Part shown: in pieces, positions 49,089 to 61,136 of the stretch
How positions within the stretch are numbered: the stretch's first letter is position 1
Layout: every line of letters begins with the position of its first letter
Assembly: GCA_963821525.1 (NCBI GenBank)
Contig: CAWGED010000008.1
Location: forward strand, 227,773 to 291,772
Reading direction: 5' to 3'
DNA length: 64,000 nt
Origin: an uncultured Gemmatimonadales bacterium
GTDB lineage: Bacteria; Gemmatimonadota; Gemmatimonadetes; Gemmatimonadales; GWC2-71-9
Made by a program: the position numbers and the translations under genes
The notes under the pieces: generated by a model
Database searches by the model: none
Told to the model about the DNA's origin: nothing
The model's input: only the letters and a program-made list of their open reading frames with translations

Positions 49089-49172
49089 TTGTGGTATAGG
49101 ACGATTGGCTATCTTCAATCGGGCACGGGGGCCGCTCCCGTGGTACGCAGGCTCGCAGTCAGAAAGGGCAGT

Positions 49173-52100
49173 ATGTCAGCCGATCCCAATGTCTTCGAAA
49201 CCGCCAACGCCGGCTTCGCCCAGGTCATGTACGAGGAGTACTTACGGGATCCCTCCTCGGTAGGACCGGAGTGGCGGCGGCTGTTCGAGAGTGGAGTCGT
49301 AGGGGTCCGACCGGAGAATGGCGAGCCTTCGGGCCATGGTACCGATGGGCAGACCCAGAGTGCGGCCATGCCCGTGGCCGAGCCCCAGCCCGTGCCTGCG
49401 GAGCCGGTTTCGAAGCCCACCGCCGCGGCCGCAGCGCCCCCGGCCCCGCAGCCCCGGCCCTCCTCCAATGCCACCCCGATCACCGGCCCCGCTGCTCGCC
49501 TGGTCGGCAACATGGAGGAGAGCCTCCGCGTCCCCACGGCCACCACGTTCCGGGAGCTGCCGGTCGGGGTTCTGGAAGCCAGACGACGCGAGCTCAACAA
49601 CGCGCTCCGGAATGCAGGCCGGCCCGAAAAGGTCTCCTTCACCCACTTGATCGGATTTGCCCTGGTTCGGGCCGCTCACGCTCATCCGGTGATGACCACG
49701 GTGTTTGACCATTCCGGCGGCACGCCGGCGCGGATCAACACCGGGAAGGTGAACCTCGGTCTCGCAGTGGACGTCGAGCGGAAGGACGGGAGCCGCGGAC
49801 TCGTCGTCCCGGTAATCCAGGATGCGGCGTCCGGAAACTTCGCCCAGTTCCACAGCACCTACGAGTCGCTGGTCGAAAAGGCGCGGGCGAACAAGCTGAT
49901 GCCCGATGCCTTCGCAGGCGGCAACATGACGCTCACGAATCCGGGCGGATTGGGAACCGTAGCCTCAGTACCCAGGCTCATGGCCGGTCAGGGCAGCATC
50001 ATCGCGGTAGGAGCGATCGGCTATCCGCCGGCATTCACCGAGCTGTCCGACGACCGGATCCGGGAGCTGGGGATCTCGAAAGTCATGACGGTCACCAGCA
50101 CCTACGACCATCGGGTGATTCAGGGAGCCGAATCAGGCGAGTTCCTGCGGACCCTCGATGGCCTGATCCAGGGCGAGGAGAAGTTCTACGAGGAGATCTT
50201 CGCGAGTCTGGGCTTGCCGAGCCCGAGCGTCCAGCCAGCTCTGGCGGAGGCGCCGACCGCGAAACTGGGTCGTGGCTCGATGCCGGTCCGGGAGTCTTCC
50301 GTCGCACTCTACCACGTCGCCGCGGCGATGGCGCTGGTGAAGGCATACCGGACTCACGGACATCTCGCGGCGCATCTCGATCCCCTGGGCAGCGAGCCAC
50401 GGGGCGATCCTTCGCTGGATCCCGAACCGCTCGGCCTCACACCGGATGTGATGTCGTCGATACCCGCGGCGGTGCTGCGGGTCGCCACTCCGGGGGAGAC
50501 GCTGGCTGATGCGATCCCCGCGTTGCAGGACGCCTACTGCGGCACCATCGCGTACGAGCTGGAACACATCGCGGTCCACAATGAGCGGGTCTGGCTGCGC
50601 CAGATGATCGAGTCGGGCGCCCATCGCACAGCCACTCCCGGTCGAGGAGCAGAAGTGGTTGCTGCAGCGCCTCACCGAGGTGGAAACCCTCGAGAAATTC
50701 CTCCACAAGGCCTACCTCGGCGCCAAGCGTTTCTCGATCGAAGGAGTGGACATGCTGGTTCCGATGCTCGATCTGATCATCGAGCTGTCGGCCCAGCAGG
50801 GGACCCGCGAGGTGGTGATCGGCATGGCCCATCGCGGCAGGCTCAACGTGCTGGCCCACACCGTGGGACGCCCCTACGAGTCGATCTTCGCCGAGTTCGA
50901 GGGTGGTCGTCATGTAGAGGCTGGCAAGCTGACGCCTGAAGGCGGAACGGGAGACGTGAAATACCACCACGGCGCCGAGGGCTCGTATCGCACTCGGACC
51001 GGGAAGAGTCTCACCGTCACCCTGTCTCCCAATCCGAGCCATCTCGAGTTCGTCGGGCCGGTGGTAGACGGGCGGGCTCGCGCCAAACAGACCTCCCGGC
51101 GCGGGCGCGAAGCGCACCACGATGCGACCGCGGCCCTGCCAGTCATCATCCATGGCGATGCGGCCTTCGCGGGTCAGGGCGTTGTAGCCGAGACGTTCAA
51201 CCTGGGAGCGCTGGCCGGATATCGCACCGGCGGAACGATTCACCTCATCACCAACAACCAGGTCGGATTCACCACCGACATGGTTGACGCGCGCTCGACC
51301 CGGCACGCCAGCGACCTCGCGAAAGGGTTCGACGTGCCGATCATCCACGTGAACGCCGACGATCCGGAGGCCTGTGTCGACGCGGTCCGGCTGGCGATGG
51401 CCTACCGGGAGAAGTTCCGCGAGGACGTGCTGATCGATCTGGTAGGCTACCGCCGGCATGGGCATAACGAAGGCGACGAGCCGAACTACACCCAGCCCCA
51501 GATGTACCAGCGGATTCGCGCGCTGCCGACGGTGCGGGAGATCTACGCGGCAAGCCTGGCGGAGCGGGGCGTGGTTTCGGCCGACGCCGCGAAGAGCGCG
51601 GCCGAAGCTGCCTACCAGCGGCTGGTAGACGTGCAGCAGAGTTTCAAAGCGGGGATGGGCAAGGCGGTTCCGGCCGAGCCGGCGCCAGCGGAACGGTCCA
51701 GCGGCATGGAGGTCGAGACCGCGGTACCGGCGGAGTTGCTGACGGCGATCAACGAGCAGCTGTTGACCTGGCCCGCGGACTTCACGGTTAATCCGAAGCT
51801 CAAGAAGCAACTGGAGCGGCGCCGGCCCGCCTTGGGCGCCGAGGGCGGAATCGATTGGGCCCACGCCGAGGCGCTCGCGCTTTCCACGTTGCTTGTCGAG
51901 GGAATACCGGTCCGTCTAACCGGTCAGGATACCGAGCGGGGCACCTTCAGCCAGCGTCACCTGGTACTGCATGATGGGGAGCGCGACGTGTCGTACGCGC
52001 CCATCGCAAACCTGCCCGGCGCCCTCGCCACGATCGAGCTGCACAACAGCCCGCTCTCGGAACTGGCCCCGCTCGGATTCGAGTACGGGTACAGCGCCGC

Positions 52101-52878
52101 CGCGCCCGAGACACTGGTACTCTGGGAAGCGCAATTCGGAGACTTCGTGAACGCGGCCCAGGTCGTCCTGGACCAGTTCATCGTGTCAGGGCTCTCCAAA
52201 TGGGGACTCACCACCCGGCTGACCCTGTTGCTGCCCCATGGATACGAGGGCCAGGGCCCCGAGCACTCCAGCGCCCGGCTAGAGCGGTTCCTCCAGCTCG
52301 CAGCGGAAGGAAATATCCGGGTCGCCAATCCCACCACGCCGGCGCAGTACTTCCATCTGCTTCGCCGGCAGGCCCGCCGGTCTCGACAGCGTCCGCTCAT
52401 CATCATGACACCGAAGAGTCTGCTGCGCTTGCCGCAGGCTTCCTCTCGGCTCGAAGAGCTGACCAGCGGGACGTTCCAGGCGATTCTGGATGATCCGGTG
52501 GCGGCCCAGCACCGCGATCAGGTCGAGAAGCTCGTGCTCTGCTCCGGGAAGGTCTACTACGACATCATGACGGAAGCGGCCAGCAAGGATCGGAGCCGGG
52601 TGGCGGTGGCGCGGGTCGAGCAGCTTTACACCTTCCCCGCCCCGGAACTGACGGCGCTGCTGGCTCAGTACCCGTCAGTCCGCGAAGTCACCTGGGTCCA
52701 GGAGGAGCCGCGGAACATGGGTGCGTGGCATTTCCTGGAGCAGCGGGTACGGCACGCTCTCAAGCCCGGAATCCCGCTCCGTTACGTGGGTCGCCCGGAA
52801 CGGGCGAGTCCCGCCGAAGGGTACCCTGCGGCGCACGCGGCGGAGCAGAAGCGGATTGTGGAGGAAGCGCTGGGGTGA
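49173..52878 (+). CDS. kgd: multifunctional 2-oxoglutarate dehydrogenase E1 with fused acyltransferase domain (Kgd-type; frameshift ~50640)
   Basis: 'YDHRVIQGAESG', 'GAKRFSIEG', 'GMAHRGRLN', 'HGDAAF.GQG', 'WEAQFGDF', 'GPEHSSAR'. Confidence 0.93.
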
Positions 52879-54327: not shown

Positions 54328-54371
54328 GTGATACGAATCTCGGAAAGGACCGGGGTATCCAAGTCGCAAGC

Positions 54372-54470
54372 ATTAAGCCGTAAGCCTTAAGCTTTTAGCA
54401 ACAGGCGCTTTGCCTATGGCTTCCGGCTTCTGGCTTACGGCTTTTTGCTGGACCGACTGGCTTAAGGCCT
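54372..54470. repeat. fold-back heptamer array (TAAGCCG)n ... (GGCTTMY)n
   Basis: taagccgtaagccttaagct ... ggcttccggcttctggcttacggctt. Confidence 0.75.
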
Positions 54471-54477
54471 GTGACTC

Positions 54478-54999
54478 CTAGCGACGCCCCCGACCCCCGC
54501 CTCGTCCCTCATCGGGCTTGCGGGTCTTGGCCAGCAGCGCTGCCTCGGCGGCTGCCTTGCGGATCATCCGTTCCGGGCTCTCGGCCTTCATGATCGTGCG
54601 CGGCTTGCCGGGCACGAAGTTCACTTTGCCCTCGACCGTCTCGACGGTGAGCGGCCGGCCGGTAGTCAGCTCGAAGACGCCCAGCACATTTTCTCCCGCG
54701 CCCTGTGCCGCCTTCACCCGCTCGGCTAATGCTTCGCGGTCGGGCAGCCCCTCCAGAGATACCGCTGGAGTACCGAAAGGCGTGATCGGCTGGACCAGGA
54801 TGGCGATCTTGGCCCCTCGAAGCGTGGGACCCAGCCGCACATCGCGGCCTCCTATCTCGCGAGCCCAGCGGGTGGCCTCACGCTCGGCCGGAGAGGGCGC
54901 GTTCTTGCCTGTGGCGGAAGCCTCGGCCGCGCCGGCGCCGGGCTTTCTCTGCTCGCGACTCTTGCGAAGCGCTTTCAGGTAATCGGGTTCGTCAGACAC
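54478..54999 (-). CDS. hypothetical protein
   Basis: GGAG SD before GTG 54999; host-like codon usage. Confidence 0.65.
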   Translation of the reverse strand: MSDEPDYLKALRKSREQRKPGAGAAEASATGKNAPSPAEREATRWAREIGGRDVRLGPTLRGAKIAILVQPITPFGTPAVSLEGLPDREALAERVKAAQGAGENVLGVFELTTGRPLTVETVEGKVNFVPGKPRTIMKAESPERMIRKAAAEAALLAKTRKPDEGRGGGRGRR

Positions 55000-55084
55000 G
55001 GTAACAGCTCCAGACAGCAGTGGGACGGGTTCGGGGGAGAAGATACACGGTAGAATGGATGAAGGGGAGAACGGGCGGAGCCCC

Positions 55085-55120
55085 GTCATTGCGAGGGCCT
55101 GCAGGACCCGAAGCAATCCC
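55085..55120 (+). repeat. REP-like palindrome, copy 1
   Basis: GTCATTGCGAG-GGCCTGCAGGACC-CGAAGCAATCCC. Confidence 0.92.
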
Positions 55121-55136
55121 CCTAAGTGTTGGCGGA

Positions 55137-55172
55137 GTCATTGCGAGGCGGCTGAGCCGCCGAAGCAATCCC
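55137..55172 (+). repeat. REP-like palindrome, copy 2
   Basis: GTCATTGCGAG-GCGGCTGAGCCGC-CGAAGCAATCCC. Confidence 0.92.
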
Positions 55173-55257
55173 CGTACATGGCCGCGGAGTCCTCTGCGCC
55201 CGAACGTGCCACCCCTGCCTTGAGGGTCAGTTGAGCCGTGGCGACTACCCTGCACAC

Positions 55258-55554
55258 ATGGGCTCAAGGTCGCAGTCCTACGCTGTATACATCCTGACGA
55301 ACAAGCACCATACCGTCCTCTACACCGGGATAACCAACAATCTCCAACGCAGATTGTTGGAGCACCGCGGCGGCTCAGGACCAGCCTTCACCTATCGTTA
55401 CCAAGCTCACAAGCTCGTGTACTACGAGTTGTTCGGAGGGGCGAGATTAGCAATTGCTCGAGAGAAACAGATTAAGGCGGGACCACGGTCCAGAAAGGTC
55501 GCGCTGATTGAATCTGTGAATCCTGGGTGGCGGGATCTGTCCGAGGATTGGTGA
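55258..55554 (+). CDS. stand-alone GIY-YIG nuclease (YhbQ/UPF0213-like), 98 aa
   Basis: 'YAVYILTN..VLYTGITNNLQRRL.EH', 'AIAREKQIK', 'NP.W.DL'; TACCCT 6 nt before the ATG. Confidence 0.93.
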   Translation: MGSRSQSYAVYILTNKHHTVLYTGITNNLQRRLLEHRGGSGPAFTYRYQAHKLVYYELFGGARLAIAREKQIKAGPRSRKVALIESVNPGWRDLSEDW

Positions 55555-55575
55555 GGGACTCCGATGACACCCACG

Positions 55576-55611
55576 GGGATTGCTTCGCCCGCTACGCGGG
55601 CTCGCAATGAC
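55576..55611 (-). repeat. REP-like palindrome, copy 3 (inverted)
   Basis: Reverse complement reads GTCATTGCGAG-CCCGCGTAGCGGG-CGAAGCAATCCC. Confidence 0.92.
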
Positions 55612-55631
55612 TGCGCTGACACCTATGGGGG

Positions 55632-56488
55632 CTACCTCACCGGCGGCACCGCGCTATCCCCTACTCTGAGCCCATAGCGCCTCAGCCGCGCGCCCAACGC
55701 ATCGGCGCCCTGTCCTCCCATCACAATGACCAACCCCGGCGCCACCAGCCTCGGCAGCCGGCGCAGATCGGGGAGCCGCGCCTCGACGTTGGCGGGATCC
55801 GAGGCGCTGATCGCGAGACAGGCGGGATGGACGGTCCACGACGCATCCACCAGGTCATGCAGCGGCAGGTCCGCGCCCAGGTAGCGGACTCTCCAGCCGG
55901 CACGCGCGAGAAGCACAAGGTGACAGAGCAAGCCCCACTCGTGACGCTCGCCCTGAAGGCAGGCCGCGAGCAGGACCGGTCCCTTGCCGCGTTCGAGCTC
56001 CAGCTCCCGCTTGAGGGTCGTGATCACCACATCACTCGCCAGGTGTTCTACCGCGACTGAAATTTTGCCCAGCGCCCATTGATCGCCGATCAACTCGGCC
56101 AACGGCAGAATCACCTCGCGGACGAAACTCTCGAGCGGCCGGTTCCGATGCTCTTCTTCCAACAGAGCGGCCAGCCGCTCGCGGTCGAAATGGCGAAGCG
56201 CGTCCAGCATGCCCGGCAGGGGGGAGCCGTCATTCACCGAGCCTTCCGCCCGGCTCAGCACCGACTCGACCGGTTCCTGCATCAGTTCACCGATTCGGTC
56301 TCCCCCGCGATCAGCCGGGCGAGGGCGCGCAGCAATGCCACCTGCTCCGAGGTGTAGACCCGGTAGCGATTCTCCAGCCGGCGAGGTCTCACCACCTTGT
56401 AGCGCCGCTCCCAGGCCCGGAGCCGGGCGGGAGCCAGGCCCGTGAGCTCGGCGACTTCCTTGATCTCATAGTTCCGGTTGGCCGTCAT
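55632..56488 (-). CDS. MerR-HTH + cobalamin-binding regulator, CarH/LitR-like (frameshift ~56300)
   Basis: MerR 'LRAWERRY..P.R..YR.Y'; W-x9-EH (WALGKISVAVEH) and ExHxxG (ERHEWG); 'YLGADLP'. Confidence 0.85.
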
Positions 56489-56614: not shown

Positions 56615-58660
56615 CTGACCGCGCCCGCCACTCTCCCCGAGACCGATCAGCTGACCACCTCTCCCGACTCCGCCTGGCGGACCATCAACAGCCTTCGCGT
56701 CCTCGCGATGGACGCGGTGGAACAGGCCCAATCCGGGCCATCCTGGCACGCCGATGGCCCTGGCGCCTGCGGGCTACCAGTTGTGGGACCGGATGCTGCG
56801 ATTCGACCCGGCCCATCCCCAGTGGGAGGATCGCGATCGTTTCGTGCTCTCGTGCGGGCACGCTTCGATGCTGATCTACGGCTTGCTCCACCTCTCGGGC
56901 TACGATCTCAGCCTCGATGATATCCGCCACTTCCGGCAATTCGGCTCCAAAACTCCAGGCCATCCTGAGCGGGGACACACCGTCGGCATCGAGACTACGA
57001 CCGGTCCGCTGGGCCAGGGCGTCGGGAACTCGGTGGGAATGGCGATCGCCGAGCGGTTCCTGGCCGAATCATTTCAACCGGCCGGGCTTCGAGCTGGTGA
57101 AGCACCGGGTCTGGGCCATGGTCAGCGATGGCGACATGATGGAAGGCGTCGCCAGCGAGGCTGCATCGCTTGCGGGTCACCTGCGGCTGGGCAATCTCAA
57201 GCTGATCTACGACGACAATCACATCACGATCGACGGATCCACCAGTCTCGCCTTCAGCGAAGATGTCGGGCTCCGTTTCGAAGCCTACGGCTGGCAGGTG
57301 CAGCATGTGGGAGACGGCAACGATCTCGACGCCATCGCGCGGGCGCTCGATACTGCCGCCGCGGAAACCACCCGGCCCTCGCTCATCATCCTGCGGACTC
57401 ATATCGGCGATCCGGCGCCCACCAAGCGGGACACGGCCGCAGCCCACGGTTCTCCGCTCGGCGCGGAAGAGGTGGCGAAGACCAAGGCGATTCTGGGATG
57501 GCCGGAGCAGGAGAAGTTCGTCGTGGCGCCCGAAGCGGCGCAGTGGCGCGCTCGCTGTCTCGAAAAGGGCCGCAAGGCGTACGGCGAATGGCAGGAGCTC
57601 TGGGATCGCTATCGCCGCGAGTTCCCCGACCTGGCGTCGGAGTTCGACCGATTGGCAGGCGGGACGGTTGCCGAAGAACTGGGCCGACGGTCTCCCCACC
57701 TTCACCCCCGCGGACGGAAAGCTCGCTACCCGGCAGGCCTCGGCTAAGACGCTGAACGTTCTCGCCGGAAAGCTGGGAAACCTGATCGGTGGATCCGCCG
57801 ATCTCGCCGAGAGCACCGGGTCCGAGATCAAGAACGGGGGCAGCTTCAGCGCGACGGCCGTGGGCCGGAACATCCATTGGGGTGTTCGCGAGCACGCCAT
57901 GGTTTCGAGCCTCAATGGAATGGCGGCCCACGGAGGAATCCGCCCCTTCGGCACCACCTTCCTCATCTTCAGCGACTACTGCCGTCCCTCGCTCCGTCTC
58001 GCGGCGCTGATGAAATTGCCGGTGATCTTCATCGGCACCCACGACTCGATTGGATTGGGTGAGGACGGGCCGACGCACCAGCCGGTCGAGCATCTTGCCA
58101 TACTGCGAGCGACACCCAACATGACCGTGATCCGCCCGGCCGATGCCTCGGAAACGGTCGAGGCGTGGCGATCGGCGATCGAGAAGAAGGATGGGCCCAC
58201 CGTCCTCGCACTGACCCGGCAGAAGCTGGCGGTGCTGGACCGCACGAAACTGGCACCCGCCGAAGGAGCTCGACGCGGCGGCTACGTGCTGCTCGATTGC
58301 AAGGGGACTCCTGAAGCCATCGTGATCGCCACCGGCAGCGAAGTGCACCCCGCCCTCTCCGCGGTGGAGCGCCTGCAGGGCGAAGGGAAAAAGGTGCGAC
58401 TGGTTTCGCTACCCTCCTGGGAGCTGTTCGAAGCGCAGCCGGAGGCGTATCGTGAATCGGTACTCCCCAAGTCAGTGACTGCCCGAGTCTCAGTCGAAGC
58501 AGCCGCGACGTTTGGCTGGAGCCGCTGGGTGGGAGACCGGGGTGTCGCGATCGGACTGGATCACTTCGGTGCTTCGGCCCCGGCGGAGGTGTTGTTCAAG
58601 GAGTTTGGGTTTACGGCGGACAGGATAATGGAAGCGGTGAAGGGCTTGCTTGGTCGGTAG
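56615..58660 (+). CDS. tkt: transketolase (frameshifts ~56735, ~57075, ~57660; start uncertain)
   Basis: 'SG-HPG.PM', 'DRFVLSCGH', 'TTGPLGQG', 'SDGDMMEG', 'GEDGPTHQP'. Confidence 0.93.
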
Positions 58661-59860: not shown

Positions 59861-61136
59861 ATGCTCTCGACTCTCAGGCGGATCTCCCTCACCGGCTGGA
59901 TCATCATCGCCACGGTGGTCGGCGCCCTTCTGGGCTGGCTCGACCACGATGTGTGGACCAGCACCGACCTGATTCCGTTCTTCACGCCGCTGTCCAATGT
60001 CTTCCTGAGAATGATCAAGGCGATCGTGGTTCCCCTTCTCTTCGGGAGCCTGGTCGTCGGCATCGCGGGGCACGGCGATGATCTGAAGCGGGTGGGCCGG
60101 CTGGCTCTCCGGTCACTGATCTATTTCGAGATCATGACCACTGTGGCGCTCTTCATCGGTCTGGCGGCGGTCAACCTGGTCCGTCCGGGCGATGGGATCT
60201 CGCTCGCGGCCAGCGCCGAGGCGGGAGAGCAGTTCGCCAGCACCAAGACGACGCTCGCCGGCGTGCTGGAGCATACCGTCCCGACCAGCTTCTTCGACGC
60301 GGCGGCCAAGAACGAAGTCCTTCAGGTGGTGTTCTTCTCGCTGCTCTTCGCCGTCGGCACTGGCCCAGGTGAAGGGCCGCCCCCGGGAGACGATGCTCGC
60401 CTTCTGCGAGAGTCTTTCGGAGATCATGTTCAAGTTCACCAACATCGTGATGAAGTACGCTCCGATCGGCATCGCGGCCGCGATCGGTGCCACGATCAGC
60501 AAGAACGGCCTCGCGGTGATCGGCAACCTGGGGCTGCTCGTCGCGACGCTGTACGGGGCGTTGATCGTGTTCATCCTCGTCGGGCTGTTGCCCGCCGCGA
60601 TCATCGCCCGGATCCCGATCCGTCCCTTCTGGGACCACGCGAAACAACCCTGGCTCATCGCCTTCTCCACCGCTTCCTCCGAAGCGGCCCTGCCGCTGGC
60701 GATGGAGAACATGGAGAAGTTCGGGGTACCGCGGCGCATCGTCTCCTTCGTGCTGCCGACCGGCTACTCCTTCAACCTCGACGGCTCCACCCTCTACCTC
60801 GGCGTCGCCTCGGTGTTCGTGGCGCAGGCCGCCGGGGTGGACATGTCGCTGGGCCAGCAGCTGGTGATGATGCTGACACTCATGCTGACGAGTAAAGGTG
60901 TCGCCGCCGTGCCCCGCGCATCGCTGGTCATTCTCGCCGGCACGCTCTCGACCTTCGGCCTTCCGCTCGAAGGCGTCGCCGTCATCCTGGGCGTGGATGC
61001 CTTCATGGACATGGCCCGCACTTCGGTGAACCTGCTGGGGAATTGCCTGGCCTCGGCGGTGATGGCGAGGTGGGAGGGGGAGCTACAGGTCGGGGTACCG
61101 CAGGCGGCGACGGCTGCCGTGATTGCCAAGTCGTAG
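59861..61136 (+). CDS. dicarboxylate/amino acid:cation symporter (GltP/DctA family; frameshift ~60355)
   Basis: 'FSTASSEAALP', 'GYSFNLDG', 'DMART.VN'. Confidence 0.92.

Follow-up and report, generated by a model that had tools for sequence, protein, structure and literature searches.

What kind of system is formed by a lone 98-aa GIY-YIG gene standing between tagged hairpin repeats, and has it moved to where it now stands? The locus that raises this question lies in the window, the 64-kb stretch of DNA analysed here. Three GTC-tagged repeats of 36 nt bracket the gene, two upstream in direct orientation and one inverted downstream (Table 1). In each, a (C/A)GTC tag is followed by a 5-bp basal stem (ATTGC/GCAAT) that encloses a short internal loop and an inner hairpin of 13 nt; the tail is C-rich. 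A preliminary description of the locus had placed the three repeats correctly, with an 11-nt head and a 12-nt tail identical in all of them, and the repeat pattern gave no match in 100 dinucleotide shuffles of the 64-kb window. The cores had also been described as self-complementary, which is true of repeats 2 and 3, both of which fold better than shuffled sequences (z -2.8 and -2.3), but not fully of repeat 1, whose inner core forms only 4 of 5 pairs and which folds no better than its shuffles (z -0.45). Likewise, the supposed conservation of core length applies to the cassette copies but not to the family, since of 11 copies in this genome 8 have 13-nt cores and 3 have cores of 23-32 nt, and the length varies in relatives. 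Overlooked in that description were the 75-nt imperfect inverted arms at the cassette ends, which are 77% complementary. The right arm ends at the stop codon of the neighbouring host gene, where an outer fourth repeat would be expected to start, and an 86-nt contig from metagenome run X6 retains, as compared by eye, an apparent half of that repeat. The gene is less GC-rich than four neighbouring genes, as had been remarked (GC 0.54 against 0.62-0.68; GC3 0.65 against 0.76-0.80).

Table 1. Features of the cassette and its flanks (window coordinates)
Feature	Position	Strand	Basis
Whole cassette, 552 nt, replacing an older intergenic segment	55079-55630		Junctions in metagenome contigs, congener alignment
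Repeat 1: GTC tag, ATTGC/GCAAT basal stem, internal loop, imperfect inner hairpin	55085-55120	+	Sequence, folding
Repeat 2: orientation as repeat 1, perfect 5-bp inner hairpin	55137-55172	+	Sequence, folding
Left 75-nt arm: spacer, repeat 2, spacer	55118-55192	+	Inverted pair, alignment
TAnnnT hexamer, 6 nt 5' of ATG; possible leaderless -10 box	55246-55251	+	Sequence
ssn gene: 98-aa single-domain GIY-YIG protein; Y11, Y22, E69, Gly75	55258-55554	+	Profile search, alignment
Repeat 3, inverted; tag directed outward from the cassette	55576-55611	-	Sequence, folding
Right 75-nt arm: inverted copy of the left arm	55556-55630	-	Inverted pair, alignment
Host flank outside the cassette: B12-binding (CarH-like) ORF	55632-56282	-	PF02607, PF02310, NF052513 below cut-off
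Host flank outside the cassette: hypothetical gene	54478-54999	-	No Pfam/NCBIfam match

The surroundings of the cassette contain a stand-alone HNH endonuclease ORF (PF01844; 53094-53564, minus strand), 1.5 kb away and with no connection seen, and a further self-matching intergenic palindrome (54363-54449) that is also present in congeners and has no Rfam match. The MerR helix-turn-helix and B12-binding parts of the CarH-like gene are separate ORFs (55632-56488), and several housekeeping genes, identified from their translations, are apparently frameshifted (49089-52878, 56754-58660 and 59861-61136), which suggests indel errors in the assembly. The leaderless -10 box claimed in the preliminary description corresponds to a TAnnnT-type hexamer, and such hexamers occupy the start-proximal position 107 times as opposed to 47 at control positions among the 2379 long ORFs of this genome. 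A leaderless promoter for the ssn gene is plausible from the sequence, and is put no higher because a -35/-10 pair (a full sigma-70 promoter) was sought upstream of the gene and none found, and because the strict hexamer stands 5-6 nt upstream of the start in only 4 of 27 Ssn loci examined. In the contigs of one RNA run the ssn gene had no coverage, and a contig from the CarH side ends at 55575, at the end of repeat 3, a signal too weak to bear on expression. An Rfam scan of the cassette region returned nothing near a gathering score.

The only domain of the 98-aa product is GIY-YIG (PF01541, E 7e-14). Small single-domain GIY-YIG proteins encoded between oriented hairpin repeats have been described as the Ssn family (cd10448; Chenal et al. 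2025, PMC11893778), whose members cleave single-stranded DNA (ssDNA) a few bases upstream (5') of the flanking repeat. That paper, as far as its text was available, admits a protein when it matches SsnA at E<1e-10 over >75% of the SsnA length, has a single domain and does not exceed 150 aa. We let an NTS-flanked N. gonorrhoeae orthologue represent the N. meningitidis protein; it was found among the 34 records of a tblastn search of a plasmid collection and was chosen because it has 94 aa, carries Y6, Y17 and E64 and lies amid 10 NTS copies in 3.3 kb. In tblastn this orthologue matched the present genome at E 1.6e-16 across 86 of its 94 residues, and it is identical to the cassette protein at 39 of 89 positions (44%). 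Residues Y6, Y17 and E64, which SsnA requires for cleavage (PMC11893778), align with Y11, Y22 and E69 of the cassette protein, and their equivalents are kept in 108, 110 and 110 of 111 homologues, respectively. The SRM-flanked homologue of Azospirillum lipoferum 4B, one of the 29 genomes on which the definition in PMC11893778 is built, is 47% identical to the cassette protein; the closest homologues among the matches listed are ~60% identical and belong to other phyla, and the Gly75 proteins of congeners are 47-55% identical. Sought as a solved close relative, only UPF0213 1zg2 was found (E 6e-4).

By homology (measured on the N. gonorrhoeae orthologue), size, single domain, the three cleavage residues and the repeats on its flanks, the cassette is thus placed in the Ssn family, published in 2025, as a variant of an already known system and not as a new one, although the preliminary description had known of no characterised system of this kind. 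It is filed as a variant because the published degenerate SRM pattern, even with up to 2 substitutions allowed, misses all three of its repeats; that pattern occurs near 71% of Ssn homologues and hence is not obligatory (PMC11893778). A literature search, with subscription journals largely outside its coverage, returned PMC11893778 as the only paper on this system and no paper with both repeat motifs. What the locus adds to the accessible text of that paper is modest: a repeat variant, a pairing of residue 75 with repeat type and a polymorphic site.

The repeats accompany the gene well beyond this genome. Among 74 homologues with enough flank, drawn from the best 80 of at least 563 relatives in a scan of a genome collection, a GTC-type repeat, by a general pattern composed after inspection of this genome's repeats, lies within 300 nt in 62, on both sides in 42 and as an outward bracket in 32, and the cassette's own ATTGC type is present in 32. 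Control flanks 900-1200 nt away contained a GTC-type repeat in 6 of 54 cases and the cassette type in 2 of 54. Repeats flanked 16 of 18 Ssn loci of relatives, as opposed to none of 8 weak GIY-YIG homologues and none of 25 CarH-like loci (of 29). The enrichment that the preliminary description proposed to look for is therefore present, and its central suggestion, that the GIY-YIG protein is the hairpin-recognising partner of the flanking repeats, is likely on this association and on the different repeats found with the four Y1 transposase genes of this genome. The published SRM pattern matched within 300 nt in only 2 of the same 74 (best 80 of at least 563) and undercounts Ssn-linked repeats.

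Four Ssn-like genes are present in this genome together with three repeat subtypes of 14, 21 and ~40 copies (0-2 each in three Markov controls). Each subtype is found beside its own Ssn paralogue, and the fourth paralogue has no intact repeat. The repeats are mostly intergenic: 7 of 70 lie inside long ORFs, which span 73% of the genome. The ATTGC type accounts for the 14 copies, in 4.3 Mb, eight of which are located on a 107-kb contig (G000:C6) distant from the cassette. Away from the cassette, the stem is followed by T in 9 of 10 ATTGC copies; in all three cassette copies it is followed by a run of C. This difference in the 3' tail indicates that the newcomer cassette has probably not seeded the dispersed copies.

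Repeat type is matched by a single residue of the protein. Of the homologues next to ATTGC or ATCGC stems, 46 of 47 have glycine at position 75, which corresponds to Trp70 of SsnA, as opposed to none of 44 next to other stems; the sole exception is a homologue with both repeat types. In all, 91 of 111 homologues could be typed, in a set that includes the query and near-duplicates and was gathered with peptide patterns that favoured Gly75 proteins. In a FastTree tree of 110 of the 111 sequences residue 75 changes 5 times, or 14 times with three columns masked, and with its weak support the tree favours neither a single Gly75 clade nor repeated co-evolution. Gly75 may set repeat specificity, and the near-perfect pairing suggests an enzyme specificity unlike that of the four Ssn proteins assayed so far.

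Several other ssn loci in the genus show rearrangement. In one paralogue (L151, G002:C450) the reading frame is cut short by a stop at the codon equivalent to Trp70, with the repeats still present. At G001:C159:12798-12905 (in the L166 region) a repeat dimer stands alone where four genomes carry an ATTCC-type ssn gene, and the same genome has a different ATTCC-type cassette ~5 kb away. At G000:C12:226914-227374 (L163) the ssn gene is reversed relative to three congeners (L152, L155 and L160), to which it is 71-73% identical; the flanks of this site are 81-94% identical to those of congeners, which points to inversion or replacement between repeats.

The cassette is absent from the corresponding site in 4 of 4 congeners, in all of which both flanking genes are syntenic (CarH-like ORF 83-94% identical, hypothetical gene 88-96%). 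Congener homology breaks at 55074-55078 and resumes at 55629-55644. The preliminary description had called for an empty site to be sought in relatives, and the absence was indeed found, but the sites are not clean: 139-258 nt of other DNA with an unrelated palindrome occupy them. This DNA (L006:1324-1492, L007, L008 and L009) contains a different long inverted repeat with an ACGCGGA unit, of which a related copy lies at ~1900-2000 of the window and 26-34 motif matches occur in the genome; in many intergenic slots of this genus, palindromic elements and 7-nt tandem elements are interchanged.

Soil metagenomes, of which contigs from 7 of 24 listed runs were compared with the site, contain both states within the species. 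Contigs of runs X1 and X14 join 55078 directly to 55631 and are cassette-free, and contigs of X14 and X6 have a loose end at 55078 followed by sequence that resembles, by eye, the congener spacer. The cassette-free allele is thus present in contigs of X1, X14 and X6, which represent three studies; cassette sequence was seen in X1, X6, X8, X10, X12 and X14, so that X1, X6 and X14 have both. Flanks around the site are ~99% identical, and from this near-identity the allele with the cassette is likely recent and derived in this species. Its absence from four sister species and from some strains of the same species makes a recent horizontal arrival likely. Having both alleles in a single species, and the left junction known to the base, gives a handle on the question of whether Ssn cassettes are mobile.

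On the left, the junction precedes the first tag by 6 nt, close but not identical to the cut of SsnA, which on our reading of PMC11893778 falls ~3 nt upstream of the NTS. On the right, 19 nt separate the junction from the tag, and it falls where the fourth repeat would have stood. Neither the congeners nor the same-species contigs show the clean empty site or target-site duplication of an insertion sequence or MITE. Of 16 congener Ssn loci, 3 occupy sites that are empty in this genome, 6 are shared orthologues, 3 stand reversed at the C12 site and 4 lack a two-sided match. Among 117 repeat loci of two congeners, 43 are shared, 8 are spanned without a detected repeat, 36 have no syntenic pair and 30 are gaps. 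The tag-side junction lies within 9 nt of the tag in only 7 of 29 gaps lacking the repeat in this genome, with a median distance of 32 nt and a range of -3 to 480 (rows not independent), which rules out a sharp cut-site signature across congeners.

Could the cassette be an active self-mobilising element, whose ends are set by Ssn cuts 5' of the outward tags and which seeds new repeat copies? The outward tags and the left junction so near the first of them fit such an element, as do the junction 3-5 nt from a tag in two of three congener cassettes missing here, the 7 of 29 tag-side junctions close to a tag, and the C12 site with its reversed gene. However, the right junction and the median tag-side distance lie well off the tag, sites have been replaced with no target duplication seen, and the dispersed repeats have another tail. 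Moreover, GIY-YIG enzymes are hydrolases, and the accessible text of PMC11893778 reports no strand transfer by Ssn, unlike TnpA-REP, which joins DNA through a tyrosine link (PMC8266576). We consider self-mobilisation possible, if somewhat unlikely, and the claim of the preliminary description that the protein mobilises or maintains the repeat family is not borne out here, where the dispersed copies differ in tail and the junctions are not clustered at the tag.

A second reading makes the protein a host filter against incoming repeat-bearing ssDNA, with the cassette spreading passively by homologous recombination via the conserved flanking genes. Such a filter has been demonstrated for SsnA in N. 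meningitidis (PMC11893778), and the co-occurrence of both alleles in X1, X6 and X14 fits this reading. A ComEC-family gene is present in this genome, but it is uninformative, because 10 of 14 control genomes have ComEC matches too. With only 14 ATTGC-type copies in 4.3 Mb, and with a cassette that is dispensable within the species, a filter function appears quite unlikely. A third reading, with a generic repair nuclease of the Slx1/YhbQ type and with repeats that are unrelated passengers of a Y1 transposase elsewhere, is extremely improbable and largely refuted: the weak match to 1zg2 and the four Y1 transposase genes of the genome would fit it, but a separate, weakly matching GIY-YIG gene here lacks repeats, the weak homologues are unflanked, the repeats at the Y1 genes are of other kinds, residue 75 goes with repeat type, and the text of Di Nocera et al. 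(2013, PMC3733652) gives no transposase beside CGTC repeats.

The reading that we prefer is that the cassette encodes an Ssn-family nuclease that very probably reads the tag and basal stem on ssDNA and cuts just 5' of the tag. In single-stranded form, the hairpin repeats on its flanks would likely be bound by the protein, and the cut would likely fall a few bases upstream of the tag. By the biochemistry of SsnA, the tag, the basal stem and the following C would be recognised and the inner hairpin may vary; SsnA accepts repeats whose loop has been removed or extended (PMC11893778), and a similar tolerance would explain why the three 13-nt cores are unrelated. Against the Ssn reading stand the replacement of Trp70, the missed SRM pattern and the inactivity of SsnA on a palindrome altered in sequence but not in structure (PMC11893778). 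The members assayed all come from Neisseria and Wolbachia (PMC11893778), and with SsnA so sensitive to its palindrome, activity on a bulged repeat is predicted by extrapolation. Less firmly, Gly75 might adapt the protein to the stem and internal loop of the ATTGC repeat, and the cassette might persist as a semi-selfish unit of nuclease and repeats, which would take over intergenic slots by replacing their content with the help of host repair or recombination rather than by clean cut-and-paste. A bolder version, which we consider unlikely, would have Ssn cassettes live and spreading by nick-primed intergenic replacement with one end set by the Ssn cut, and the Trp-to-Gly change retargeting the enzyme to the bulged ATTGC repeat in many phyla; if true, it would give CGTC-type REPs the motor that they have lacked, and ssDNA nucleases a specificity code of one residue.

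Compared with known systems, the cassette resembles the REPtrons (RAYT/TnpA-REP with GTAG REPs; PMC8266576) in having a nuclease gene between tagged hairpins recognised as ssDNA. In contrast to them, it has no HUH/Y1 domain (PF01797 matches four other loci and nothing in the cassette), its tag is GTC and not GTAG, and no covalent tyrosine strand transfer is expected. A RAYT partner was considered and rejected, as none of the four Y1 genes has cassette repeats within ~1.5 kb. Each of these genes (L001-L004) stands between its own inverted palindromes, and L002 and L003 have the same repeats at the same offsets. The cassette is therefore REPtron-like by layout, as first described, but is not a member of that group. 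The discussion in PMC11893778 itself draws a parallel with REPs and IS200 and raises a domestication hypothesis.

With the CGTC-tagged REP superfamily (PMC3733652), which includes dRS3 of Neisseria, the cassette repeats share an unpaired GTC tag, a stem opening with AT, a short C-rich tail and a mostly intergenic location. They do not fit families 1-4, which, by their published description, have stems of 8-9 bp and loops of 4-5 nt, whereas the cassette repeats have a 5-bp basal stem, an internal loop and a 5-bp inner stem; bulged forms were possibly overlooked, according to Di Nocera et al. (2013). The closest likeness is to Ssn and the SsnA-NTS system: a single-domain GIY-YIG protein of <150 aa with homology above the threshold of PMC11893778 and the three tested residues, with oriented GTC-tagged hairpin repeats on either side of its gene and at other places in the genome. 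The cassette differs from SsnA-NTS in its 5-bp ATTGC basal stem, internal loop, variable inner hairpin and lack of an SRM match, in the glycine at the position of Trp70, in the low copy number of its repeat in this genome, in the several paralogues with different repeats in one genome, and in its presence or absence among strains of one species.
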